In this document: positions 1-14,356 of the stretch, one piece after another
How the letters are laid out: each line of letters begins with the position of its first letter
Position numbering within the stretch: position 1 is the first letter of the stretch
Source: a candidate division WOR-3 bacterium
Lineage (GTDB): Bacteria > Hydrothermota > Hydrothermia > LBFQ01
Length of the DNA: 38,757 bases
Direction: 5' to 3'
Assembly: GCA_027050205.1 (NCBI GenBank)
Contig: JALUCS010000073.1
Span: 1 to 38,757 of the forward strand
Made by a program: the position numbers and the translations under genes
The notes under the pieces: model-generated
What the model was told of the DNA's origin: nothing
What the model saw: only the letters and a program-made list of their open reading frames with translations
Databases searched by the model: none

Positions 1-122
1 AAGGATGACCGCGACCCGGCATTACGGACGGAGGAGTAAAGGTCTTCTCACCGGACGGTAGGTTCCTGTACCCGCCAACCTCAAGCGGGGTATAAATTTC
101 CCACACGGCCCGCATTCAGCAG

Positions 123-128
123 TATAAT
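123..128 (+). promoter_or_regulatory. Putative -10 box for the tRNA-Trp/rpl/rpo operon
   Basis: Perfect TATAAT 35 nt upstream of the tRNA; no convincing -35 box. Confidence 0.45.
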
Positions 129-163
129 ACCTTCCGCATCCGCCGGGAGGGTGTTTTTAACGT

Positions 164-236
164 AGGGCCGTAGCTCAACTGGAAGAGCGGCGGATTCCAA
201 ATCCGCAGGTTGGGGGTTCGAGTCCCTCCGGCCCTG
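164..236 (+). tRNA. trnW: tRNA-Trp (CCA), 3' CCA not encoded
   Basis: Cloverleaf with acceptor AGGGCCG/CGGCCCT, anticodon arm GCGGA-TTCCAAA-TCCGC (CCA at 197-199), T-loop GTTCGAGT and discriminator G236. Confidence 0.97.
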
Positions 237-239
237 CTT

Positions 240-407
240 ATGGCCAAGAAGACGCAGGGTAGGCATACGGTGGGGTTGAAATGTACTGTGTGCGGACGTT
301 TTAATTACGCCATAAGCAAGCAGAGGTCCAACCGTAAGAAGATAGAGCTGCGGAAGTACTGCAAGTGGTGCAGGAGGCATACCCTCCACAAGGAGGCCAG
401 GATATGA
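240..407 (+). CDS. rpmG: 50S ribosomal protein L33 (zinc-ribbon form)
   Basis: 55 aa with LKCTVC...NY...ELRKYCKWCRRHTLHKE. ATG at 240; the track start at 210 lies inside the tRNA. Confidence 0.96.
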   Translation: MAKKTQGRHTVGLKCTVCGRFNYAISKQRSNRKKIELRKYCKWCRRHTLHKEARI

Positions 408-640
408 ACGTGATCGGGTCCCTGAAGGAGACCCTCGGCAAGTTCTGGGACATGCTCGTCAACCTCCCCGAATTTATGGAGGGGATGAAGGAGGAGTTGG
501 GGAGGCTGACCTGGCCCGACTGGAACAGCCTCGTCGCTGGGACCCTCGGAGTGATAGCCATATCCGCCTTCACCACCCTCTTCATCTGGATCTCCGACTT
601 CGTAATATCGCGGGTCATCCTCGCAATACTCGGCGGATAA
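404..640 (+). CDS. secE: Preprotein translocase subunit SecE
   Basis: ELGRLTWP motif (variant of ELxKVxWP) followed by one TM helix; lies between rpmG and nusG; ATGA overlap with the rpmG stop. Confidence 0.9.
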   Translation: MNVIGSLKETLGKFWDMLVNLPEFMEGMKEELGRLTWPDWNSLVAGTLGVIAISAFTTLFIWISDFVISRVILAILGG

Positions 641-649
641 GGGGGGAGT

Positions 650-1570
650 ATGCCGGAGGTAAAGGAGAAGAACTGGCTTGTTTTCTGGACGGTATCCGGT
701 CAAGAACTTAGGACTAAGCGTAGGATTGAGAAGTTGGTTAAGGATCTCGGTTTGGAGGACAAGGTTGAGAGCGTATTCGTTCCCACCATCCGCACTACCC
801 GTTTCATAAAGCGGAAGCGTAGGCCCCGTCTCGTAGACGTGATAATAGAGGACTGGGGGGACAGCCTCCCCCTGGATTTCATCAAGTTCGTCCAGCCCTA
901 CCCCATAGGTTTCAAGGGTAAGCCCGTCGGGGAACTTCCCTACGCCTACGAGGAGTTGAAGAGGGGGCTGTACCGCTTCCACAAGGTGGACAGGTACCGC
1001 CTTGAGGACCTGTTCCGTACCCTCCGAAACTACGGCCTCTACCCCGTCATCCTCGGCGTCAACGAGAAGGAGATGGCCAAGTACGAGGACAAGTTCAAGG
1101 AGTGGGGGATAACCTTCAAGACCACAAAGAGCGCCATAAAGCCCGCCCCCGGCCAGTACGAGGTCGTAGAGGAGAAGAGGATCGTAGAGAAGCCCATCTA
1201 CAGGGGTTACCTCTTCATTCGGATGGAGGAGGACCAGAGGGTCATAGACCAGATCACCCAGATCATCTCCCGGACGAGGCCGATAAGGGCGCAGGACCCC
1301 GAAACCGGCGAACCGACCTACATGAAGATGTCCGAGGAGGAGATAAAGCGGATAGAGGAACTCATCCGTCAGCAGGAGGAGGAGAGCAAGCGGAAGCTCC
1401 CCTTCGTTGAGGGCGACCGTGTGCGCGTCGTTGAAGGGGCCTTTAAGGGCCGGGAGGGTACGGTTGTCGCCGTGGACGGGAACAAGGGGATAGTGAAGGT
1501 GAAGGTGAAGGAGTTCGGCAAGTACCTGGAGCTGGACTTCAAGTTTTCTATGGTAGAAAGGATAAGCTAA
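650..1570 (+). CDS. nusG: Transcription factor NusG with a large insertion in the NGN domain
   Basis: NGN motifs (W...[18 protein letters not shown]) and KOW domain ([18 protein letters not shown]); secE-nusG-rplK synteny; 306 aa. Confidence 0.95.
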
Positions 1571-1583
1571 GGAGGTTGAAAAA

Positions 1584-2024
1584 ATGGCCAGGAAAAGGAA
1601 GAAGGAGGTCGTGGCGGTAGTCAAACTTCAGCTCCCTGCGGGGCAGGCCTCTCCCGCGCCGCCCGTAGGTCCTACCCTTAGCCCTCACGGTATCAACCTG
1701 ATGCAGTTCGTCAAGCAGTTCAACGATGCCACGAGGGACAAGATGGGTCTGATAATACCCGTCGTAATCACCATCTACAAGGACAGGACGTTTGACCTGG
1801 AGTTCAAGACGCCACCGGCCTCCGTACTTCTGAAGAAGGCTGCGGGCGTTGAGAAGGGTGCCAGCGAACCCGGTAAGCAGGTGGTCGGCACCGTAAAGCG
1901 TTCCCAAGTGGTTGAGATAGCCAAGCAGAAGATGCCCGACCTCAACACCACGGACCTTGACGCCGCCGTTCGCATGATAGAGGGTACCGCCCGGAGTATG
2001 GGCATAAAGATAGTGGAGGGATAG
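1584..2024 (+). CDS. rplK: 50S ribosomal protein L11
   Basis: [23 protein letters not shown] and [10 protein letters not shown] motifs. Confidence 0.99.
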
Positions 2025-2025
2025 C

Positions 2026-2751
2026 ATGGCCAAGGTCGGTAAGAGGTACCGCAAGCTCTTAGAGCTGTACGACCCGCACAAGGCCTACCCTCTCAAGGAG
2101 GCCGTGGAGATAGCCCGGAAGTTCCAGAGCGCCCGCTTCACCGAGTCCGTGGAGCTCCACGCCAAGTTAAACATAGACCCCCGCAAGCCGGAGCAGAACA
2201 TCCGTATCCCCGTCGTCCTCCCCCATGGCACTGGCAGAAAAGTAAGGGTCCTGGTCCTCACCAGCGACCCCGAGAAGGAGAAGGAGGCAAAGGAGGCGGG
2301 AGCCGACTACGTGGGCTTCAAGGAGTACATAGACAAGATAAAGCAGGGATGGCTTGAGTTTGACGCCGTGGTGGCCACGCCGGAGGCCATGCGGGAGGTG
2401 GGTAAGCTCGGTAGGATCCTCGGTCCCCGTGGCCTCATGCCCAGTCCCAAGACGGGTACGGTGACCAAAAACGTCGGGGACGTTGTCAGGGAACTGAAGA
2501 AGGGCCGTGTTGAGATAAGGAACGACAAGACCGGGAACGTCCACGTCATAATCGGCAAGACCAACTTCACCCCGGAGCAGCTCTACGAGAACGCCCTGAC
2601 CGTCCTTGAGGAGATCGCCCGTAACCGCCCCCAGGGCGTCAAGGGGAGCCTCTTCAAGTCCGTCTACGTCACCACCACCATGGGGCCGTCCGTCAAGGTG
2701 GACTTGAACGACATAACGAACATCCTGCGGAGCAGGGGGGTTAAGGTATGA
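2026..2751 (+). CDS. rplA: 50S ribosomal protein L1
   Basis: LPHGTG, LGRILGPRGLMPSPKTGTV and TTMGP motifs. Confidence 0.99.
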   Translation: MAKVGKRYRKLLELYDPHKAYPLKEAVEIARKFQSARFTESVELHAKLNIDPRKPEQNIRIPVVLPHGTGRKVRVLVLTSDPEKEKEAKEAGADYVGFKEYIDKIKQGWLEFDAVVATPEAMREVGKLGRILGPRGLMPSPKTGTVTKNVGDVVRELKKGRVEIRNDKTGNVHVIIGKTNFTPEQLYENALTVLEEIARNRPQGVKGSLFKSVYVTTTMGPSVKVDLNDITNILRSRGVKV

Positions 2752-3272
2752 AGACCAGAGAGTGGAAGACCAAGATGTTGGAGCAGCTCCGCCAGTGGGG
2801 CGAGGAGGCTACTATGATAGCCCTATTTGACTTCAAGGGCCTCACCGTGGCGGAGATGAACGACCTTCGGAAGCAGCTCAAACAGAAGGGTTACGCCGTA
2901 AAGGTCGTAAAGAACAACCTGATGAAGCTCGCCCTTCAGGAGAAGGTGCCGGAGATAGTGGACGTCCTCGTCGGCCCCACGGCCATAATCGTGTCCTTCG
3001 GGGACGAGGTGGAGCCGGTGAAGATCTTCGCCGACTTCTCCAAGGAGGTGGAGAAGGGCGAGTTCAAGGCCGCCATAATGCACGGCCAGTTCCTGAACAA
3101 GGACGAGGTCCTGCGTCTGTCCAAGCTCCCCTCAGCCCAGGAGCTGCGGGCGCAGGTCGTGGGGGCTGTAGCCGGTCCCCTCTACGGCATAGTGGGGGTC
3201 TTGAGCGGTGTGATGAGGAGCCTCGTCTATGCGCTTAACGCCATAAAGGAAAAGAAAGAAAAGGAGGGTTAA
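2748..3272 (+). CDS. rplJ: 50S ribosomal protein L10
   Basis: GLTVAEMNDLR, VVKNNL and LSKLPS motifs; the long C-terminal helix is compatible with three L12-dimer binding segments. Confidence 0.97.
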   Translation: MKTREWKTKMLEQLRQWGEEATMIALFDFKGLTVAEMNDLRKQLKQKGYAVKVVKNNLMKLALQEKVPEIVDVLVGPTAIIVSFGDEVEPVKIFADFSKEVEKGEFKAAIMHGQFLNKDEVLRLSKLPSAQELRAQVVGAVAGPLYGIVGVLSGVMRSLVYALNAIKEKKEKEG

Positions 3273-3275
3273 AAG

Positions 3276-3665
3276 ATGACCGAGAAGAAGCTTTCAGTGG
3301 AGGAGATCGTAGCCGCAATTGAGCAGCTTACCGTGCTGGAGCTCGCCGAGCTTGTCAAGGCCCTTGAGGACAAGTTCGGCGTGAGTGCGGCCGCTCCCGT
3401 GGCCGTGGCCGCCGTTCCCGGTGCCGCCGCCGGCGCCGAGGCCCAGGAGGAGGAGAAGACCTCCTTTGACGTCGTCCTCACGGCCATAGACAACAAGATC
3501 AAGGCCCTCAAGGTCATCCGCGAGGTCACCGGTGTGGGCCTCAAGGAGGCCAAGGAGATGATAGAGGGCCTGCCCAAGGTCATAAAGGAGGGCGTCTCCA
3601 AGGAAGAGGCCGAGGAGATCAAGAAGAAGTTCGAGGCGGCCGGAGCCAAGGTTGAGCTCAAGTGA
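3276..3665 (+). CDS. rplL: 50S ribosomal protein L7/L12
   Basis: [24 protein letters not shown], Ala-rich hinge, [10 protein letters not shown]...GLKEAK...GVSKEEA. Confidence 0.99.
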
Positions 3666-3683
3666 TCCCGCGCATAAGGCTGC

Positions 3684-3717
3684 GAGGGGAAGTCTCTACG
3701 GGGGGCTTCCCCTCTTT
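3684..3717 (+). terminator. Hairpin/attenuator between rplL and rpoB
   Basis: GAGGGGAAG...CTTCCCCTC stem, extendable with G-U pairs, followed by TTT; same position as the E. coli rplL-rpoB attenuator. Confidence 0.6.
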
Positions 3718-3738
3718 GGCGTTTAACAGGAGGGGGAC

Positions 3739-6700
3739 ATGGTAGAACCCGTGAGGGTAGGTAAGATAGAGGAGAAAGACATACCGTACCTCTTGGCCCT
3801 GCAGCTGAAGTCCTACGACGACTTTCTGGCCGAGAGGTTCAACGTCTTCTGGAGTCCCACAGGCAGGGGTTCCGCCTTTTTGAACTTCGTAAGGGACTTC
3901 ACGGATAGGTTTGCCCTCGCCATCAAGGTCTCCAAGGGTAAGACGAGCGAGAGGTACGAGAAGGCGAGGGAGATAGAGGAACGACTCCGTGAGCTCTTCG
4001 GTGATGAGGTGGTGAGGGAGGACATACCGAAGCCCCAGCAGCACTACATCATTCTGCCCAAGAGGAGCTACTCCAAGGAGGAGATAAAGGAGATCTTTGA
4101 AATAGCGAGCCAGTACGCCTCTCCGTACGAGGCGAAGGTCGGATTCGTAGGCCTGTCTAAGGATTCGCTTGGGGAGTTCCACGAAGCCGTAGCCAACAGG
4201 CTCGGCTCTTTGAGGTACGAGGTGGAGGAGTCCTTCTTTGACCACTCGGACCCCAGGTCCCGGACGAGCCTCCACCAGATATTCCGGGAGATCTTCCCCA
4301 TACAGAGTACGTCCGGGCGGGTAGAGATAGAGTACCACGACTACAGGGTGGGTAAGCCGGTGAGGACGGCAGAGGACGCCAAGAAGAAGGACCTGACCTA
4401 CTCCGTCCCCATCCACATAAGGGTGACCGAGAGGGTGTTTGACGAGAGCGGCATAATGGAGGAGGAGAGGGAGGACATCGTCTACTTCACCGACATCCCC
4501 TATATGACCGAGAGGGGAACCTTCGTCATCCAGGGCGTTGAGAGGGTGGTCATAAGCCAGATACACCGGTCCCCCGGTATCTACTTCGTCATAGACGAGG
4601 AGGGGTTAAACAAGATCTTCAAGGCCCTCCTCATACCCTACCGCGGCCCGTGGATGGAGCTGCGGATAGAGGGCGAGAAGGGGATATACTTCGTCCTCCG
4701 TAAGAGGAAGTTCTACCTCACCCGTTTCCTGCGTTTCATGGGGCTTGAGACCCCCAGACAGATAGTGAAGGTGGCCATCGGCAACATAGCGAAGGAGGTA
4801 CCCATCTCCGAGGCCGAGGGCTACATCCTCGCCGAGGACGTCGTATCAGAGGACGGCGAGATCATCGTCCCGATGTTTAAGGAGTCCAAGAAGGACAAGA
4901 ACATAGAGCCGGTCCTGATAGACGAGGACGTCCTTGAGGCTCTGAAGGAGCATCGCATCACCAAGGTGAAGGTCTTTGACCCCAAGGACCCGGCCGTAGC
5001 CCTGATATACAAGGCCCTGCGGGACGACAAGATGCGCACCAAGGAGGAGGCCATAAGGTTCATATACCGTACGATCAGGTTCTCCTCCTCAACGCTTGAG
5101 ACGGCGGAGGAGTTCCTGCGGGCCTACTTCTTCTCCCCCGACAAGACCTTCCTCGGAAGGGTGGGGCGGTACAAGATAAACGCCCGCCTTGACTTTGAGA
5201 GGCACTTGAGGGACCTTGAGGGGTACGGGGTACCCGGTGAGGACGTGGAGTGGTTCACGGAGGAGGATTTCATCGTAGCCCTGCGTGAGCTGATAGCCCT
5301 CTACAGGGGTGAGGGTGAGGAGGACGACATAGACGACCTCGCCCACAGGCGTATAAAGAGGGTGGGAGAGCAGCTCTACGAGGCCGTAAGGACGGAGTTC
5401 ATAAGGACGTCCAAGGGTATCCGTGAGAAGCTCATAGACGAGGAGAGTTCCCTGCGTAAGATAGTGCATCCTAAGATCGTATCCCGCTCCGTCGTGGCTT
5501 TCTTCACCCAAAACAGCCTCTCCCAGCTTCTGGATCAGACCAACCCCCTCGCTGAGCTTACCAACAAGAGGCGTATCTCCGCCCTCGGTAAGGGAGGGCT
5601 TACCCGTGAGACGGCCACCCTTGAGGTGAGGGACGTCCACCCCTCCCACTACGGCCGCATCTGTCCCATAGAGACCCCCGAAGGCCAGAACATCGGTCTG
5701 ATACTATCCCCCACGGTGTATGCCCGCATAAACGACCTCGGCTTCCTTGAGACGCCGATAGTGAAGGTGGAGAACGGCAAGGTGACCAACGAGGTGAGGT
5801 ACGTCGCCCCCCACGAGGATTACGACCTCCGCATCGCCCCAGCCGACCTGCCGATTCACCCCCGGACCAAGCTCATAAAGAAGGCCAAGAACATCATCGT
5901 CAGGCACCGCCGCAACTACATCTTCGTGGATAGGGAGCATATAGACTACATAGACCTCTCACCGAGGCAGATCATATCCCCCTCCACCTCCCTCATACCC
6001 TTCCTTGAGTACGACGACGCCAACCGCGCCCTGATGGGTTCTAACATGCAGCGTCAGGCCGTTCCGCTCCTCAACCCGGAGGCCCCCCTGGTGGGTACGG
6101 GGATGGAGGAGAAGATAGCCAGGGATAGCGGGGCCGTGGTCGTGGCGGAAGAGGACGGTGAGGTGGCCTACGTAGACTACAACAAGATAATGATCCGTCC
6201 GGAGGGGGCGAAGTTCAATCTGAAGACCTACAACCTCCGGGTGTTTGAGAGGTCCGGGCAGAACACCATCATACACTACGTCCCCCGTGTCAGGAAAGGG
6301 CAGAAGGTGAAGAAGGGAGACATCCTGGCCGAGAGCCTGTCCTCGGTCGGTGGGGAGATCTCCCTCGGAAGGAACCTGACCGTGGCCTTCATGCCCTGGT
6401 ACGGGTACAACTTTGAGGACGCCATAGTCATATCCGACCGGATAGTGACGGACGACCTCCTAACGTCCATACACATCCTTGAGTTCACGGCCGAGGTGCT
6501 GGACACCCGCCTTGGACCGGAGGTGGTGACGCCGGAGCCTTACAAGGAGAACCCTTCCCGTCTGAAGCACCTGGACGAGTACGGAATAGCCCGCATAGGT
6601 ACGAAGGTGGCCCCGAGGGACATCTTAGTGGGTAAGAACACGCCGAGGGAGGAGAAGAAGTTCAGCGAGCTGTCCCCGGAGGAGAAGCTCCTGATGTCCA

Positions 6701-8181
6701 TCTTCGGGGAGAAGTCCCGTCCGTGGAAGAACACCTCCCTGCGGGTGCCTCCGAGCGTGTACGGAACCGTCATCGGCGTTGAGATACTGACCCGGAACCT
6801 ACCCGACGACCCCATAGCCTTTGGAATGAACGACAAGGAGGGGAACTTCATACCCGGAGAGCTCTACGTTGATGACAGCGTGCGACCGGACCAGCCTTTG
6901 CCCAAGGACAGGCCAATAGGCCCCCGTCAGAAGAAGCTCCTTGACGAGATAAACCTCCGGATAGACGACCTAAGGAGTACGTTGAGGGAATCCCTGTCCA
7001 TAGCCCTCGGCCACAAGGTGAGAAAGCCCATCTACGTCCGAAAGGGCGGGGAGCTGGTTGAGGTCCTGAAGGCCGGGGAGGAGGTAACCCTTGAGTTCCT
7101 CCAGAGCGTAGACCCCTTGAGGCTGGTGGTTGAGAGCGGCACCTTTGAGGACAAGGACGTAGAGAACGAGGTCATAAAGACGATAGAGGACGGACAGGAG
7201 ACCTACGAGAGGTTGATGGAGGAGTACGACGAGGGCCTCAATATGATCCGCCGCGGGGACGACCTACCCGCCGGTGTGCGCCAGGTCATAAAGGTCTATA
7301 TAGCCCAGAAGCGTAAGATAAAGGTCGGGGACAAGTTGGCCGGCCGCCACGGAAACAAGGGCGTCATCTCCATCATAGCCCCGAGGGCCGACATGCCCTT
7401 TATGGAGGACGGTACGCCCGTGGATGTGGTCCTCAACCCCCTCGGTGTCCCCTCCCGTATGAACTTCGGTCAGATCCTGGAGACCGTCCTCGGATACGCC
7501 GCCATAAAGAACACGGAGAAGCTCCGCAACCTCCTGAAGAGCAAGGCCCCCGTCTCGGAGATAAGGGAGTTCTTGATGAAGCTCTACGAGCCGCATAAGG
7601 ACGAGGACCTGAAGAGGTGGATAAAGGAGGCGGAGAAGGAGGACCTCCTCCACTTCGCCCAGCAGTTGGCGGAGAGGGGCATAAAGTACGCCGCTCCTGC
7701 CTTCCAGAGCCTAACGGTGGAGGAGGTGAAGGAGCAGCTGAAGTTGGCCGGCCTATCGGAGGACGGGAAGATGCGGCTTAGGGACGGACGAACGGGTGAG
7801 TATCTTGACTACCCCGTCACCGTCGGGTCAATGTATATAATGAAGCTGATCCACATGGCCGAGGACAAGATTCACGCCAGATCCACCGGTCCCTACTCCC
7901 TCATCACCCAGCAGCCGGTCGGTGGCCGCGCCCACATGGGAGGGCAGAGGTTCGGTGAGATGGAGGTATGGGCGCTTGAGGCCCACGGCTCGGCTTACGC
8001 CCTCTGGGAGATGCTCACCATCAAGTCCGACGACATCAAGGGTAGGGTGCAGACCTACAAGGCCATCCGCGAGGGTACGGAACCGCCTCTACCCTCCACA
8101 CCTGCCACCTTCCAAGTCCTCACCAAGTTCCTGAAGGCCCTCGCGATAGATTTGAAGATGGAAAGGGAAGAAGAAAAGTAA
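3739..8181 (+). CDS. rpoB: DNA-directed RNA polymerase subunit beta
   Basis: ERVVISQIHRSPG, RDVHPSHYGRICPIETPEG, GSNMQRQA, GDKLAGRHGNKG and GGQRFGEME motifs. Confidence 0.99.
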   Translation: MVEPVRVGKIEEKDIPYLLALQLKSYDDFLAERFNVFWSPTGRGSAFLNFVRDFTDRFALAIKVSKGKTSERYEKAREIEERLRELFGDEVVREDIPKPQQHYIILPKRSYSKEEIKEIFEIASQYASPYEAKVGFVGLSKDSLGEFHEAVANRLGSLRYEVEESFFDHSDPRSRTSLHQIFREIFPIQSTSGRVEIEYHDYRVGKPVRTAEDAKKKDLTYSVPIHIRVTERVFDESGIMEEEREDIVYFTDIPYMTERGTFVIQGVERVVISQIHRSPGIYFVIDEEGLNKIFKALLIPYRGPWMELRIEGEKGIYFVLRKRKFYLTRFLRFMGLETPRQIVKVAIGNIAKEVPISEAEGYILAEDVVSEDGEIIVPMFKESKKDKNIEPVLIDEDVLEALKEHRITKVKVFDPKDPAVALIYKALRDDKMRTKEEAIRFIYRTIRFSSSTLETAEEFLRAYFFSPDKTFLGRVGRYKINARLDFERHLRDLEGYGVPGEDVEWFTEEDFIVALRELIALYRGEGEEDDIDDLAHRRIKRVGEQLYEAVRTEFIRTSKGIREKLIDEESSLRKIVHPKIVSRSVVAFFTQNSLSQLLDQTNPLAELTNKRRISALGKGGLTRETATLEVRDVHPSHYGRICPIETPEGQNIGLILSPTVYARINDLGFLETPIVKVENGKVTNEVRYVAPHEDYDLRIAPADLPIHPRTKLIKKAKNIIVRHRRNYIFVDREHIDYIDLSPRQIISPSTSLIPFLEYDDANRALMGSNMQRQAVPLLNPEAPLVGTGMEEKIARDSGAVVVAEEDGEVAYVDYNKIMIRPEGAKFNLKTYNLRVFERSGQNTIIHYVPRVRKGQKVKKGDILAESLSSVGGEISLGRNLTVAFMPWYGYNFEDAIVISDRIVTDDLLTSIHILEFTAEVLDTRLGPEVVTPEPYKENPSRLKHLDEYGIARIGTKVAPRDILVGKNTPREEKKFSELSPEEKLLMSIFGEKSRPWKNTSLRVPPSVYGTVIGVEILTRNLPDDPIAFGMNDKEGNFIPGELYVDDSVRPDQPLPKDRPIGPRQKKLLDEINLRIDDLRSTLRESLSIALGHKVRKPIYVRKGGELVEVLKAGEEVTLEFLQSVDPLRLVVESGTFEDKDVENEVIKTIEDGQETYERLMEEYDEGLNMIRRGDDLPAGVRQVIKVYIAQKRKIKVGDKLAGRHGNKGVISIIAPRADMPFMEDGTPVDVVLNPLGVPSRMNFGQILETVLGYAAIKNTEKLRNLLKSKAPVSEIREFLMKLYEPHKDEDLKRWIKEAEKEDLLHFAQQLAERGIKYAAPAFQSLTVEEVKEQLKLAGLSEDGKMRLRDGRTGEYLDYPVTVGSMYIMKLIHMAEDKIHARSTGPYSLITQQPVGGRAHMGGQRFGEMEVWALEAHGSAYALWEMLTIKSDDIKGRVQTYKAIREGTEPPLPSTPATFQVLTKFLKALAIDLKMEREEEK

Positions 8182-8191
8182 AGGGGGAGAT

Positions 8192-11100
8192 ATGGCAACC
8201 ACTTGGAAAACCATCAAGGCCGTGATAGCCTCTCTGGCCTCCCCGGAGGAGATAAAGCTCTGGTCGGAGGCCGAGAGGAAGGGTCGCGAGAGAGGGGAGT
8301 ACGGCGCCGGTGAGGTGAAGAGCGCCGAGACCATAAACTACAAGACCCTCAAACCGGAACCCGGGGGACTCTACTGTCAGAGGATCTTCGGCCCCGTAAA
8401 GGACTACGAGTGCGCCTGCGGCAAGTTCAAGGGACGGAGGTACGAAGGGGTCATATGCGACAGGTGCGGGGTTGAAGTCACGAGGTCCGACGTCCGCCGT
8501 GAGCGCATGGGCTACATAGTCCTCAACACCCCCGTGGTTCACCCGTGGTTCTACAAGATGCCCCCCTACATCATCCCCACCCTCCTGGGGATACCCAAGA
8601 GCAAGTTTGAGCTGATCATAAACTACGACGCGTACGTAATCTTGGACCCCAAGAGGTCCCCCAGCACCGTAAAGATTGAGATGGACGACGGCTCCGTCCG
8701 GACTATAAAGATGCAGAAGGGCCAGGTACTCTCGGTGGACGAGTACCGTAAGCTCATCAGCGTCCTCGGTCCCGACTCCTTCTCCGCCGGCTGGGGAGCC
8801 GAGGCCATCAAGAAGCTCCTTGAGGAGCTGAACGAGACCATAGAGGACCCCAACAGCAGGGAGAGGATAACCCGTCTTGAGTACCTCTACAGGGACACCA
8901 AGCTCAAGTTCATGCACACCACCAACCCCACGGAACGCACCCGCCTGATAAACCGCCTGAAGATCATAGAGGCCTTTATTCTCTCCGGCCAGAACCCCGC
9001 ATGGATGGTCCTTGAGGTCATACCCGTCCTGCCTCCCGACCTGCGGCCTCTCCTCCCCTTGGAGGGTGGAAAGTTTGCCAACACCGACCTTACGGACCTC
9101 TACAGGGACGTAATCCGTAGGAACCACAGGCTGAAGTTGATATACGAGAGGGGCGGCTTTGAGCTGATGATCATCAATGAGAAGCGCCAGATAAAGCACG
9201 CCGTTGAAGCTCTTATAGACAACTCCCGTCTCCGCCGCCCCTCAACCAACCGGAGCGGTCAGAGGAGGAAGTCCCTTACGGACTACCTCCGCGGTAAGAA
9301 GGGGCTGCTCCGTCGTAACCTCCTCGGTAAGCGTGTGGACTACTCCGGCCGTGCCGTGATAGTGGTCGGCCCGGAGCTGAAGCTCCATCAGGTGGGCCTG
9401 CCCAAGGACATGGCCCTTGAGCTGTTCAAGCCGTGGCTTGAGGAGAAGATGGAGAGGGCGGGCCTCGCCTACACCAGATCCGAGAAGCACGAGTTCATAA
9501 AGGAGAAGCACCAGCAGACCGTTGAGCTTCTCCTGGACGTGACTAAGCACTACCCCGTAATGCTCAACCGCGCCCCCACCCTCCACAGGGTGTCCATACA
9601 GGCCTTTGAGCCGGTACTGACGGAGGGCTACGCCATAAAGCTCCACCCCCTCGTGTGCGCCGCCTACAACGCCGACTTTGACGGCGACCAGATGGCCGTC
9701 TTCGTACCCATCCACCCTGAAGCCATAGCCGAGACCTACGCCCTCCTCCTTGCCCCCCACAACATCCTGTCCCCCGCCCACGGTGGGCCGCTCGCTACGG
9801 CCTCCCAGGATATGGTCATCGGTATAAACTACCTGACGAAGGAGAAGCCCACGGACAAGAGGGAGGAGGAACTTCCCCACTTCGCCGACCCCTACGAGGT
9901 TATGCTGGCCGTTGAGAATGGAAGGGTAGGTGTAAACGACCCCGTGGTGGTGATGCTTCCGGAGAGGGGCAACCCCTTCAACCCGGAGAAAGACGCGCCC
10001 ATCCGCCCTGTCCGTACCACGGCCGGTCGTGTGATATTCGCCTCCATCGTACCGGAGGACATGTGGGGTGAGGACTTCACCTACGGAGACCTGAATAAGG
10101 AGTACGGTAAGAGGGACATAGCAAACCTCGTCAGCCGCATCTACAAGAAGCTCGGCACGTGGAAGACGGCCCACTTCCTTGACGACATGAAGGACCTCGG
10201 TTTCAGGTGGGCGGCCTGGTCCGGCGTCACCTTCGGTATAGACGATGTCATCGTCCCGCCGGAGAAGGAGAAGATAATCAAGAAGGCCTTCAAGGAGATA
10301 GAGCAGGTTGAGAGGCTCCACGCCCAGGGTAAGATAACCCACGCCGAGAAGCAGCAGAGGATCTTTGACATATGGACCCGCGTGACCGAAGAGGTCACGG
10401 AGAAGATGCTTGAGTACCTAAGGAAGGACAAGGACGGCTTCAATCCCCTCTATATGATGGTGATGTCCGGCGCCCGTGGTAACATAGACCAGACCCGCCA
10501 GCTCGGGGCTATGAGAGGGCTGATGACGAGGCCCGCCAAGAAGGGACAGGCCGGTGAGCTCATACCCACCCCCGTACTCTCCTCCTTGAAGGAGGGTCTG
10601 TCCTCCATAGAGTTCTTCATCTCCTCCCACGGCGCCCGTAAGGGACTGTCCGACGTAGCCATGAAGACGGCCGACGCCGGTTATCTGACCCGTAGGCTCG
10701 TGGACGCCGCCCAGGAGGTCGTCGTAACCATGGAGGACTGCGGGGCCATACAGGGGCGCGCCGTCCAGGCCCTCAAGGAGGGAGAAACCATCATAGAGCC
10801 GCTCTCCTCCCGTATAGTGGGCCGGTACTCCCTCTACGACGTCTATCACCCCGTCACGGGCGAGGTGATAGTGAAGGCCGGCGAGGAGATAACCGAGGAG
10901 AAGGCCAAGGCCATAGAGGAGGCCGGTATAGACACGGTGCATATCCGCTCCGTCCTGTACTGTCAGGCCCCGCACGGCGTGTGCGCCAAGTGCTACGGCA
11001 GGAACCTCGCCACCGGCAAGAAGGTGGATACGGGCGAGGCCGTCGGTATAGTGGCCGCCCAGTCCATCGGTGAGCCGGGTACCCAGCTGACCCTAAGGAC

Positions 11101-12445
11101 GAAGCACACGGGTGGGGCGGCCGAACGTATAGTGGGCGAGTCCAAGCACGTCGCCCAGTTCCCCGGAATAGTCCGGTGGAAGGACATAAAGGCCATAGAG
11201 CAGCCGGACGGGGGATGGGTGGTCGTCTCCCGTAAGGGTAGCCTTGTCCTTGAGGGTAGGGATGGACGTACGAAGGAGTACGGACTGGAATACGGCTACA
11301 AGATATACGTCGGGGACGGTGAGAGGGTTGAGAAGGGGGACGTCCTCGCCGAGTGGGACTTCTACGCCATGCCCATCCTCGTCACCAAGGCCGGAAAGCT
11401 GGTGTTTGAGGGCCTCGTGGAGGGCGTATCCCTGAAGGAGGACCTGCAGGGTACCACCCTGGAGTACGTCGTTGAGGTAGTACGGCACCGTCGTCTCTAC
11501 CCCAAGGCGAAGGTGATAGACCCCAACACCGGAGAGGTGTTGGAGGTGATACCTCTGGCGAACGACGCCCGTCTGACCAAGAAGGCGTACGAGATCTTCA
11601 AGGGTACCGGCAACCCCTACGTCAACCCCGGTGAGGTTATAGCGAGGGTGCCGAGGCTCATCTACAAGACGAGGGACATCACCGGAGGACTGCCCAAGGT
11701 TGAGGAGCTCTTTGAGGCTCGTGTCCCGCGGAACAACGCCGTAATCGTGGAGAAGGACGGCGTCGTCAAGGACATCATCATAGACGACCGGAAGGGGATG
11801 ATCCGCATCATAGTGAAACACGATGACGGTACGGAGAGTACCTACCAGGTTAAGTACGGCGAGTATATCCTCGTCTCCAAGGGCGACCGCGTCCGGGCGA
11901 TGGACAAGCTCATAGAGGGAGACATCTCCCCCAAGGACATCCTGCGGATCAAGGGTAAGGAGGCAGCCGCCGAGTACCTCCTTGAGGAGATCCAGAAGGT
12001 CTATCGTGTCTCCGGCGTGAAGATAAACGACAAGCACATAGAGATCATAATCCGCCAGATGCTCCGCCGCGTCCGTATAGTGGACGGCGGAGACACCCGC
12101 TACCTGCCGGAGCAGATCGTAGATCTCAACCGCATCCTTGAGGAAAACCGCAGGGTTGTGGCGAAGGGTGGCAAGCCCGCCAAGTACGAGCCTATCCTCC
12201 TCGGTATAAGTAAGGTGGCCGCCACCACGGACAGTTTCCTCGCTTCGGCCTCCTTTGAGGAGGCTCCGAGGGTCCTCGCCGAGGCCGCCGTACGCAAGCA
12301 GCGGGACGAGCTTAAGGGCCTCAAGGAGAGGGTCATAATCGGGGACCTGATACCCGCCGGGACGGGCTTCCCTGCCTGGAGGATGGACAAGATTGTCCTT
12401 GAGGTGGAGGAGATGGAGGAGATGGAAACCCAGGCGGGAGGATAG
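8192..12445 (+). CDS. rpoC: DNA-directed RNA polymerase subunit beta'
   Basis: N-terminal zinc finger, LLGKRVDYSGR, catalytic NADFDGD, bridge helix, and an SI3-type insertion in the trigger loop. Confidence 0.99.
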   Translation: MATTWKTIKAVIASLASPEEIKLWSEAERKGRERGEYGAGEVKSAETINYKTLKPEPGGLYCQRIFGPVKDYECACGKFKGRRYEGVICDRCGVEVTRSDVRRERMGYIVLNTPVVHPWFYKMPPYIIPTLLGIPKSKFELIINYDAYVILDPKRSPSTVKIEMDDGSVRTIKMQKGQVLSVDEYRKLISVLGPDSFSAGWGAEAIKKLLEELNETIEDPNSRERITRLEYLYRDTKLKFMHTTNPTERTRLINRLKIIEAFILSGQNPAWMVLEVIPVLPPDLRPLLPLEGGKFANTDLTDLYRDVIRRNHRLKLIYERGGFELMIINEKRQIKHAVEALIDNSRLRRPSTNRSGQRRKSLTDYLRGKKGLLRRNLLGKRVDYSGRAVIVVGPELKLHQVGLPKDMALELFKPWLEEKMERAGLAYTRSEKHEFIKEKHQQTVELLLDVTKHYPVMLNRAPTLHRVSIQAFEPVLTEGYAIKLHPLVCAAYNADFDGDQMAVFVPIHPEAIAETYALLLAPHNILSPAHGGPLATASQDMVIGINYLTKEKPTDKREEELPHFADPYEVMLAVENGRVGVNDPVVVMLPERGNPFNPEKDAPIRPVRTTAGRVIFASIVPEDMWGEDFTYGDLNKEYGKRDIANLVSRIYKKLGTWKTAHFLDDMKDLGFRWAAWSGVTFGIDDVIVPPEKEKIIKKAFKEIEQVERLHAQGKITHAEKQQRIFDIWTRVTEEVTEKMLEYLRKDKDGFNPLYMMVMSGARGNIDQTRQLGAMRGLMTRPAKKGQAGELIPTPVLSSLKEGLSSIEFFISSHGARKGLSDVAMKTADAGYLTRRLVDAAQEVVVTMEDCGAIQGRAVQALKEGETIIEPLSSRIVGRYSLYDVYHPVTGEVIVKAGEEITEEKAKAIEEAGIDTVHIRSVLYCQAPHGVCAKCYGRNLATGKKVDTGEAVGIVAAQSIGEPGTQLTLRTKHTGGAAERIVGESKHVAQFPGIVRWKDIKAIEQPDGGWVVVSRKGSLVLEGRDGRTKEYGLEYGYKIYVGDGERVEKGDVLAEWDFYAMPILVTKAGKLVFEGLVEGVSLKEDLQGTTLEYVVEVVRHRRLYPKAKVIDPNTGEVLEVIPLANDARLTKKAYEIFKGTGNPYVNPGEVIARVPRLIYKTRDITGGLPKVEELFEARVPRNNAVIVEKDGVVKDIIIDDRKGMIRIIVKHDDGTESTYQVKYGEYILVSKGDRVRAMDKLIEGDISPKDILRIKGKEAAAEYLLEEIQKVYRVSGVKINDKHIEIIIRQMLRRVRIVDGGDTRYLPEQIVDLNRILEENRRVVAKGGKPAKYEPILLGISKVAATTDSFLASASFEEAPRVLAEAAVRKQRDELKGLKERVIIGDLIPAGTGFPAWRMDKIVLEVEEMEEMETQAGG

Positions 12446-12465: not shown

Positions 12466-12494
12466 GGGGAGGGGGAGGCCCCTCCCCTTTTTTT
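12466..12494 (+). terminator. Intrinsic terminator after rpoC
   Basis: GGGGAGGGG-GAGG-CCCCTCCCC followed by T7; overlaps the stop codon of the convergent gene. Confidence 0.85.
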
Positions 12495-14322
12495 ATCTGG
12501 AGATCACCCGATACACCTTCCCGTTCGCCTTTACGAAGTACACGCCACGCTCAAGTGGCACCACCACCTCCCCAACTACGTCGTCTCTCTTTATGAGACG
12601 GCCGTCAGATGAGAAGACCTCGTAGGTACCCCTACCCTTCAGTATCACCTTCCTACCGACGGTCCGTACCTCCAAGCTCAACACCTTCCCAACTTCAGAG
12701 GCGGAGAGGTCGTCCCCATCTCCCAAGATGTCGCAGTTGGGTACGATCCAGATGCTGTCCAACATCGGGGCGTTGTTGGTGGGAGGCCCTGTGCGTCTGA
12801 AGACTACCTTGTACTGAATGTAGTTGTCCCCGGAGGGGTGGAGACCGAGGTCTATCAGGCTCGTACCGGAGGCCACGGGGCCAACCCAAGGGGCGGAGGG
12901 TACATCCGTTGAGTCCCCTCCCCACCTGACGTACACTTCCAACTCCCAGTTGTCGGGGACGCACCCGATGTACTTCAGGGTGTCAAACGAGCAGGAGCCT
13001 ATCGGGGCCTCAAGGATGGAGGAGACCAACTCGGCGTAAGAGGCGTAGGTGGTGATGGTGCGGTTCCGGTATATGAAGTGGCCGTAAGGGGAGGCTAGGT
13101 TGGTGAAGACTATGTCCTGCTGGATGTCAAAGCACCCGTAGTTATCCACGTTGGCAAAGTAGAGGTTGTGGATATTCCAACCGGAGGAGAGGGTGTAGCG
13201 GGTGTAGGACGGGGCTACGTAGATATCCACGTTCCCAAGGCCTCCGAGAAAGTCCGTAAGGCCGTCCCCGTTGAAATCGCCGGCATAGAGGCCGTCGTAC
13301 ATCGTCCCCGAAGCCACATTCACCCTGGTAAAGGAGAAGCTCCCGTCGTTCCGGAGGTAGGACAGGTAGTAGCCCGACTGGTAAGGGGCGTAGGCTATGT
13401 CAATATCACCGTCGGCATCCACGTCTATGGGCCATGAGCCGTCAGAGTTGTCGGAAGAGCCACCGAAGTATGCGGCGAGAGTAAAGGTACCACCAGTGTT
13501 CTGGAAGACCATAACCGGGTAGTAACTCGTGAGAATATCCAACCACCCATCGTTGTTGAAGTCCGTCAGGTATATCCGCATAGCCTTGTAGTTGTTGTCT
13601 GTTGGATCAGAGTCGTATATCATTACCGGTATCCAGGATGAACCATCGTTTCTGAAAAGGACGACGTCTCCACCACCTCCACCGCCTCCCGGACCGCACC
13701 CGTTGGTGGCCACTATATCCACATCGCCGTCGTTATCCACATCTCCGGCATCGGCGTAGGAGATGTAGGTCCCACACCAGTAGGAGGACGAGGAGGACAC
13801 TATCTGGCTCCGGGTGAAGGTCAAGGAACCCGTCTGGTAATATACGTAGAGGCCGGACTTCATCGGGGCGAGGATGTCGGGCCTGCCGTCAAGGTCCACG
13901 TCCCTTATCCAGACCGGCCAGACCTTGCCACCGTAGAAGGAGGAGACGTCCTCAACCGTCGTTGGCGTAAAGTTCCCAAGGCCGTCGTTGAGATATACGA
14001 CCAAAACGGTGTTGGATCTGTACCCCACGAGGTCTATGTCCCCGTCCCCGTCCATATCGTAGGGGTAGGCGTTACCGTAGGGACCGGGACCGGTCAGCTC
14101 CACCGTGTCCAGTATCCACCTGGACCAGTCGTAGGCCGTGGCTACAGGGTTTATCTGACCCGGCATCCCCCACGCGACCGAATCCTGCGAACAGAACTGC
14201 GTACCCCAGGACGTAACCACACCGCATACCCCATCTCCACCATTCCAGTTGCCCTGGGCGTAGGGCTGGGCGTAAAGTCCTCCCGCCAGCAGAAGCGTAA
14301 GATACGTAAGTGACCTCCTCAT
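12493..14322 (-). CDS. Secreted FG-GAP/VCBS-repeat protein with T9SS-type C-terminal sorting domain
   Basis: Signal peptide MRRSLTYLTLLLAGGLYA. Repeated DxDGDGDxD motifs (DMDGDGDID, DVDLDGRPD, DVDNDGDVD, DFNNDGWLD, DFNGDGLTD). Tail VFSSDGRLI...GVYFVKANGKVYRVI. Confidence 0.8.
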   Translation of the reverse strand: MRRSLTYLTLLLAGGLYAQPYAQGNWNGGDGVCGVVTSWGTQFCSQDSVAWGMPGQINPVATAYDWSRWILDTVELTGPGPYGNAYPYDMDGDGDIDLVGYRSNTVLVVYLNDGLGNFTPTTVEDVSSFYGGKVWPVWIRDVDLDGRPDILAPMKSGLYVYYQTGSLTFTRSQIVSSSSSYWCGTYISYADAGDVDNDGDVDIVATNGCGPGGGGGGGDVVLFRNDGSSWIPVMIYDSDPTDNNYKAMRIYLTDFNNDGWLDILTSYYPVMVFQNTGGTFTLAAYFGGSSDNSDGSWPIDVDADGDIDIAYAPYQSGYYLSYLRNDGSFSFTRVNVASGTMYDGLYAGDFNGDGLTDFLGGLGNVDIYVAPSYTRYTLSSGWNIHNLYFANVDNYGCFDIQQDIVFTNLASPYGHFIYRNRTITTYASYAELVSSILEAPIGSCSFDTLKYIGCVPDNWELEVYVRWGGDSTDVPSAPWVGPVASGTSLIDLGLHPSGDNYIQYKVVFRRTGPPTNNAPMLDSIWIVPNCDILGDGDDLSASEVGKVLSLEVRTVGRKVILKGRGTYEVFSSDGRLIKRDDVVGEVVVPLERGVYFVKANGKVYRVISR

Positions 14323-14356
14323 AATATGCGTATTATAAAGCCGGGATGAGGCCAAC

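Follow-up and report, generated by a model that had tools for sequence, protein, structure and literature searches.

An in-frame insertion of predicted nested fold in the RNA polymerase beta subunit of a candidate division WOR-3 family, with a probable twin in NusG

What the large extra segment near the N-terminus of the RNA polymerase beta subunit (RpoB) of a candidate division WOR-3 bacterium is, where it may have come from and what it may do are the questions raised by contig JALUCS010000073.1 (assembly GCA_027050205.1), analysed here from position 1 to 38,757 of the forward strand (the window). The gene rpoB (3739..8181, +) is one open frame of 1480 amino acids with Rpb2 domains, and carries an in-frame insertion of 136 amino acids (3832..4239, +; RpoB residues 32-167). 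Because RpoB residues 13-31 align to residues 22-40 of the Escherichia coli beta subunit and residues 167-224 to 38-95, the insertion was placed at E. coli F38/I39, which confirms the initial annotation, made from the DNA letters, of about 135 additional residues in this place. The domain called beta-uD1 or beta domain 1 is the protrusion. The residues directly after the insertion align to 4xax, a solved construct of "beta domain 1", and the insertion site lies inside beta-uD1 (beta1/protrusion domain) by the limits in Table 1 of PMC11515920. Measured from the Q..S[YF] motif to the F.E.FP motif, the spacing is 149-155 amino acids in 12/12 genomes of the WOR-3 family and 21 amino acids in 18/18 other genomes of the class, these 18 loci having been retrieved from the 29 other order and class genomes searched. 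The net insertion is 128-134 amino acids and the frame is open in all 12 family genomes. Since the insertion is common to 12 genomes and its 5' junction is spanned by contigs from two other studies, it is not an assembly artefact; no listed piece spans the 3' junction by 31 letters.

The RpoB insertion, which lies between conserved regions of beta and exceeds the 40-50 amino acids required of such elements, is a lineage-specific beta insertion, clade-restricted and fixed. With the RpoB N-terminus as query, the 12 family genomes (two genera) match across all 224 residues, and in the 29/29 remaining order and class genomes the match begins only at residue 154-178. The 12 inserts are mutually 38-82% identical, and their profile recovers the same 12 at E < 1e-58 among 272 genomes of the phylum, a distribution of one family only; it also gave nine weak matches, eight of which were rejected on inspection. 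Searched against 1.84 billion representatives, the profile found no match outside the family, the sole match being a fragment of a family RpoB. The ratio of non-synonymous to synonymous substitution (dN/dS) of the insert lies at 0.05-0.36 for those ten pairs, out of 15, whose dS is unsaturated (the other five are saturated), and the insert is under purifying selection. Its codon bias is that of its gene, with a GC content at third codon positions of 0.78 in the insert and 0.82 in the remainder of rpoB. A NusG from the sister genus falls into one cluster with a record under the name Candidatus Caldipriscus sp.; this WOR-3 lineage was originally reported from a spring in Yellowstone (PMC12542636). 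Insert-bearing DNA is present in runs labelled hydrothermal vent metagenome. Family genomes have been deposited as 'Thermotogota/Thermotogae bacterium', so that name-based searches could mislead; three close records, which their depositors tagged 'uncultured bacterium' or 'Thermotogota', were taken as mislabelled.

An in-frame insertion in an essential gene could be the fixed remnant of a mobile element, either an intein or a LAGLIDADG homing endonuclease, and the beta-alpha-beta-beta-alpha run of the inner part of the insert belongs also to the LAGLIDADG fold, which had been named in the initial annotation as an alternative in degenerate form. This explanation is highly improbable. The insert has no Cys, Ser or Thr at its start and no His-Asn at its end, and is followed by Asp; the absence of intein terminal motifs, already remarked upon, holds at either junction, and the intein junction residues are missing in 12/12 sequences. 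No insert matches a LAGLIDADG profile or motif (0/12), none matches any Pfam or NCBIfam family (0/12 for the L12 family PF00542 and for the LAGLIDADG families), and the search for intron families in positions 1-5000 of the window returned a tRNA only. The insertion is, moreover, fixed in 12/12 genomes and not patchy. Lacking intein termini, an intron family and Pfam or NCBIfam matches, the insert is an old component of RpoB, fixed in the family, and no mobile element.

The structure model of the RpoB insert has four helices and six strands (predicted local distance difference test, pLDDT, 92.3), and is predicted to be a ferredoxin-like unit nested in a second alpha/beta unit. The N-terminal half of the outer unit (3832..3912, +) comprises a strand at model residues 2-7 and a helix at 14-24, as assigned by DSSP. 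The model and the alignment place the inner ferredoxin-like unit, beta-alpha-beta-beta-alpha-beta, at model residues 28-106 (3913..4149, +). The C-terminal half of the outer unit (4150..4239, +) has a strand ending in G-L-S, a helix at 110-124 and a strand at 129-133, and is shaped in the model like the last beta-alpha-beta of the C-terminal domain (CTD) of ribosomal protein L12. The outer unit is further backed by structure-search rows spanning model residues 1-132/136, with 60-77 aligned residues. In the 12-sequence alignment the invariant loop residues fall in the inner unit, where G36, E40, R41, I65-P66, P68, Y72, P76 and Y80 do not vary. The initial annotation had described nested L12-CTD-like units: the model agrees with the nesting and, for the C-terminal half, with an L12-like shape, and the link in sequence is weak. 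The fold searches give top matches alone, and among the matches listed from 48,161 chains the closest over the full length is a designed protein, 5cw9, the top Foldseek match of both this insert (127/136 residues, root-mean-square deviation, rmsd, 5.6) and the NusG insert described below (101/102 residues, rmsd 4.3). The entry 5cw9 is a de novo designed, artificial ferredoxin-in-ferredoxin insertion protein, whereas the RpoB insert is natural and its outer unit is three-stranded; the shared topology has no bearing on descent or function.

A second insert is found in nusG (650..1570, +; 306 amino acids), at the tip of the hairpin of the NusG N-terminal domain, as a family-specific core of 102 amino acids (827..1132, +; model pLDDT 93). 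Like the RpoB insert, it is present in 12/12 family genomes, and the other 260 of the 272 phylum genomes have no strong match to either. Both models share the element order beta-alpha-beta-[alpha]-beta-beta-alpha-beta-alpha-beta, the bracketed helix being present in RpoB only, and the NusG insert is, on the models, a similarly built and probable twin. Comparison by hhalign gives E 0.005-0.012 with a probability of 3.5-7%, and the match has p 0.054 among 17,280 element permutations. A common origin of the two inserts is considered likely. Domain shuffling within the nusG-rplK-rplA-rplJ-rplL-rpoB cluster would have brought in both, once, in the ancestor of the family; both would have been remodelled after entry, the extra helix of the RpoB copy completing the inner ferredoxin fold.

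The candidate donor in this cluster is the CTD (3465-3662, +) of the intact rplL (bL12; 3276..3665, +); from the end of this CTD to the site of the RpoB insertion is a distance of 170 bases. Between nusG and rplL lie three ribosomal genes, presumably rplK, rplA and rplJ by sequence and order. In the models, the RpoB insert aligns to the L12 CTD of 8yeq over 68 residues (chain 60-129, rmsd 2.6, 16% identity) and the NusG insert over 66 residues of the same span (rmsd 2.6, 18% identity). The NusG insert has the better sequence link: hhalign gives E 9e-4 with a probability of 23%, its median score is attained by 0.08% of 2368 proteome windows and by none of 300 residue shuffles or 300 block shuffles, both halves are collinear, and the true order ranks first of 720 element permutations. 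In two directions the p-values are 0.005 and 0.027, and an S10-to-L12 control gives 0.023. The RpoB insert falls in the top 1.4% of the 2368 windows, with p 0.09-0.13 against 2000 proteome windows and 0.27 among element permutations, and its C-terminal half gives a weak signal (p 0.03 by residue shuffle, 0.10 by block shuffle). The five identities to L12 in 23 positions that were first read near its N-terminus are present as stated, but do not exceed chance (p=0.47 with shuffled L12 as reference; BLASTP E=2.3 against the L12 of the window). The L12 CTD, of beta-alpha-alpha-beta-alpha-beta fold, binds translational GTPases via a basic face of its first helix. In the register first read, which is not significant, the Arg is kept in 9/12 RpoB inserts; the lysines that L12 has in its first helix are missing. 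The L12 CTD also differs from the RpoB insert in that the latter has an insertion of about 50 residues, which builds the second, ferredoxin-like unit.

With E values up to 10 allowed, the PF00542 profile matched 0/12 inserts of RpoB and 0/11 of NusG; filing the RpoB insert as a member of PF00542, of ClpS-like fold, was rejected for lack of a profile match, and the sequence link of the RpoB copy to L12 is not significant. The second PF00542 match of the same genome, presumably the N-terminus of EF-Ts, sits on another contig. In a separate protein of 1175 amino acids (P0041, an NCBI record), three tandem L12-CTD-like domains occupy the C-terminus (residues 929-1174), and therefore the L12 CTD can act as a mobile module. 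L10-L12 fusion proteins of about 310 amino acids were frequent among the matches, some named Nitrospira/Nitrospirales or Ca. Fervidibacterota, and one rplL match (L102, G011:C19:11913-12278) in a 57%-complete genome has one internal TGA, which could reflect either a premature stop or a fault in the assembly.

Large, in-frame, clade-restricted inserts in surface lobes are a known feature of the beta subunit, as in Lane and Darst beta-i1 to beta-i12, BEAN, beta-i4/SI1, beta-i9 and beta-In5. According to PMC11515920, two folds account for most large lineage-specific RNA polymerase inserts, BEAN for those in beta and HABAS for those in beta-prime. By the definitions given there, the RpoB insert is neither: four helices and six strands do not fit HABAS/SBHM, and BEAN has alpha-beta-beta and beta-beta-alpha brackets with TG[DE], whereas the insert has another element order and no TG[DE] column. 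This agrees, within the accessible part of that source, with the initial view that it is not one of the usual SBHM/BBM inserts. The five beta sites listed there do not include the N-terminal part of beta-uD1, and the site is provisionally regarded as uncatalogued, set apart from that list; a homologous numbered beta-i insert would be expected to surface in the search of 1.84 billion representatives. Similarly to the family NusG, the NusG N-terminal domains of the thermophiles Thermotoga maritima (domain II) and Aquifex aeolicus bear an extra domain (PMC5224480), but a similarly built RpoB domain, present in the WOR-3 family, is unreported for them in the accessible text of that paper. The NusG insert that PMC11515920 covers is a beta-sheet domain of the HABAS kind, whereas that of the family is predicted to be nested alpha/beta. 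The literature search found no description of the RpoB insert, and the accessible part of PMC7819879 has nothing on such inserts.

Concerning function, here it is proposed that the RpoB insert would be a passive surface platform at the upstream face, helping to keep NusG or upstream DNA attached to the polymerase during elongation. With its N-terminal domain, NusG reaches both the protrusion and the lobe of beta (bioRxiv 10.1101/324400), and the hairpin tip of the NusG paralog RfaH touches upstream DNA (10.1101/2023.06.26.546588). The insert DII of Thermotoga NusG binds beta, beta' and double-stranded DNA (Kd 40 nM), and has been proposed to stabilise the complex against heat (PMC5224480). Since the RpoB insert is neutral in charge, a protein partner is favoured over DNA, and by analogy with the Firmicutes insert beta-In5, which docks PcrA (10.1101/2021.06.06.447298), it is likely a docking platform. 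A binding role near NusG in particular, rather than no role, is suggested by such analogies with odds somewhat below even.

The same neutral charge would also suit a tolerated, nearly function-free appendage, that is, a small, stable alpha/beta domain of unspecified source in a permissive surface loop, retained solely through the need to fold, with an independent NusG insert of convergent fold. Deletion of beta-i4 or beta-i9 in E. coli causes minor defects only, these inserts being nearly dispensable (PMC2939025), and the missing significant sequence link of the RpoB insert to the NusG insert or L12 favours this explanation too, as do its faster evolution than the core and its absence from the 18/18 class relatives examined. 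However, polar and loop residues (E40, R41, P66, P68, Y72, P76, Y80) are invariant across two genera at 38% identity, and it would take a double coincidence for two inserts to agree both in nested order and in their range of 12 genomes when their hosts are binding partners; the nearest listed full-length match is a designed protein. An inert appendage is held to be unlikely, yet is a strong alternative with an appreciable share of the probability.

Ferredoxin-like units often pair through exposed edge strands, and the two inserts could be cognate partners in direct contact, a lineage-specific fastener by which NusG is clipped to the beta protrusion. The identical range of both inserts and the contact of NusG with the protrusion favour such pairing, but joint presence in a single clade counts as one event and not as independent co-evolution, and direct binding is considered quite unlikely. 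Slightly more doubtful still is a fuller scheme in which a copy of the L12 CTD was recruited twice from the one operon, into NusG and RpoB, the nested unit grew, and the cognate domains snap together or grip a shared ribosomal partner; if true, the L12-derived pair would form a protein clip, private to the family, that joins NusG to RNA polymerase. The ferredoxin-like core of uS10/NusE is present in the model of the inner unit, which could then be a loop-less uS10 mimic capturing the NusG KOW domain or NusB and altering Rho termination or ribosome coupling; with hhalign E 0.27 to PF00338/S10, p 0.24-0.47 and no Pfam match, such mimicry is very unlikely.

Taken as a whole, the favoured reading of an RpoB insertion limited to one family, with a nested fold, a sister in NusG, possible L12 descent and a passive platform role, is given a probability of roughly 0.45. 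Several observations count against it. The RpoB insert evolves faster than the following 480 codons, as an appendage would. Its match to the NusG insert has p 0.22-0.25 against 2000 proteome windows, and its match to the L12 CTD has p ~0.1 against block shuffles and is out of structural register. The p-values between the NusG insert and L12 are too favourable because this pairing was chosen by eye beforehand. L12 ancestry thus depends on one moderate link, from L12 to the NusG insert, and on a second, from the NusG to the RpoB insert, resting mainly on predicted structure and shared range; it is regarded as possible, just short of even odds. An account by heat adaptation, in a class that includes a thermophilic vent isolate (PMC12542636), is weakened by the 18/18 class relatives examined that manage without the RpoB insert.

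Other features of the locus and of the family were noted. Upstream of nusG is a tRNA gene (164-236, +), and rpoC (8192-12445) follows rpoB. At residues ~1020-1180 (about 6800-7270, +), rpoB has a long flap-region insert with an extra Pro/Gly-rich stretch, presumably at the site of E. coli beta-i9. Directly after rpoC, a protein of 620 amino acids (12493-14355, -) has repeated D-x-D-G-D-G-D motifs, which are taken to be FG-GAP-like, and a weak type A sorting domain of the type IX secretion system at its C-terminus (TIGR04183, E 0.003, below cut-off). The NusA N-terminal domain is remodelled in the family: that of the sister genus (G007, L158:1270-2736, -) has a beta-rich insert of about 75 amino acids, presumably biotinyl/HABAS-like, and that of the genome analysed here (contig C104, L159:1237-2502, +) is without the loop seen in other class members.

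For the family, the RpoB insert can be used as a clean marker. Should the domain prove inert, it would be a curiosity of a single uncultured family. The insert adds a different architecture at a site unlisted in PMC11515920, on the lobe used by NusG and CarD/Mfd-type factors, and with the NusG insert of matching range it offers a rare paired test of insert function with two small, well-folded domains. As a natural unit-inside-unit domain whose nearest listed full-length match is a designed protein, it also bears on the birth of new domains from operon neighbours.
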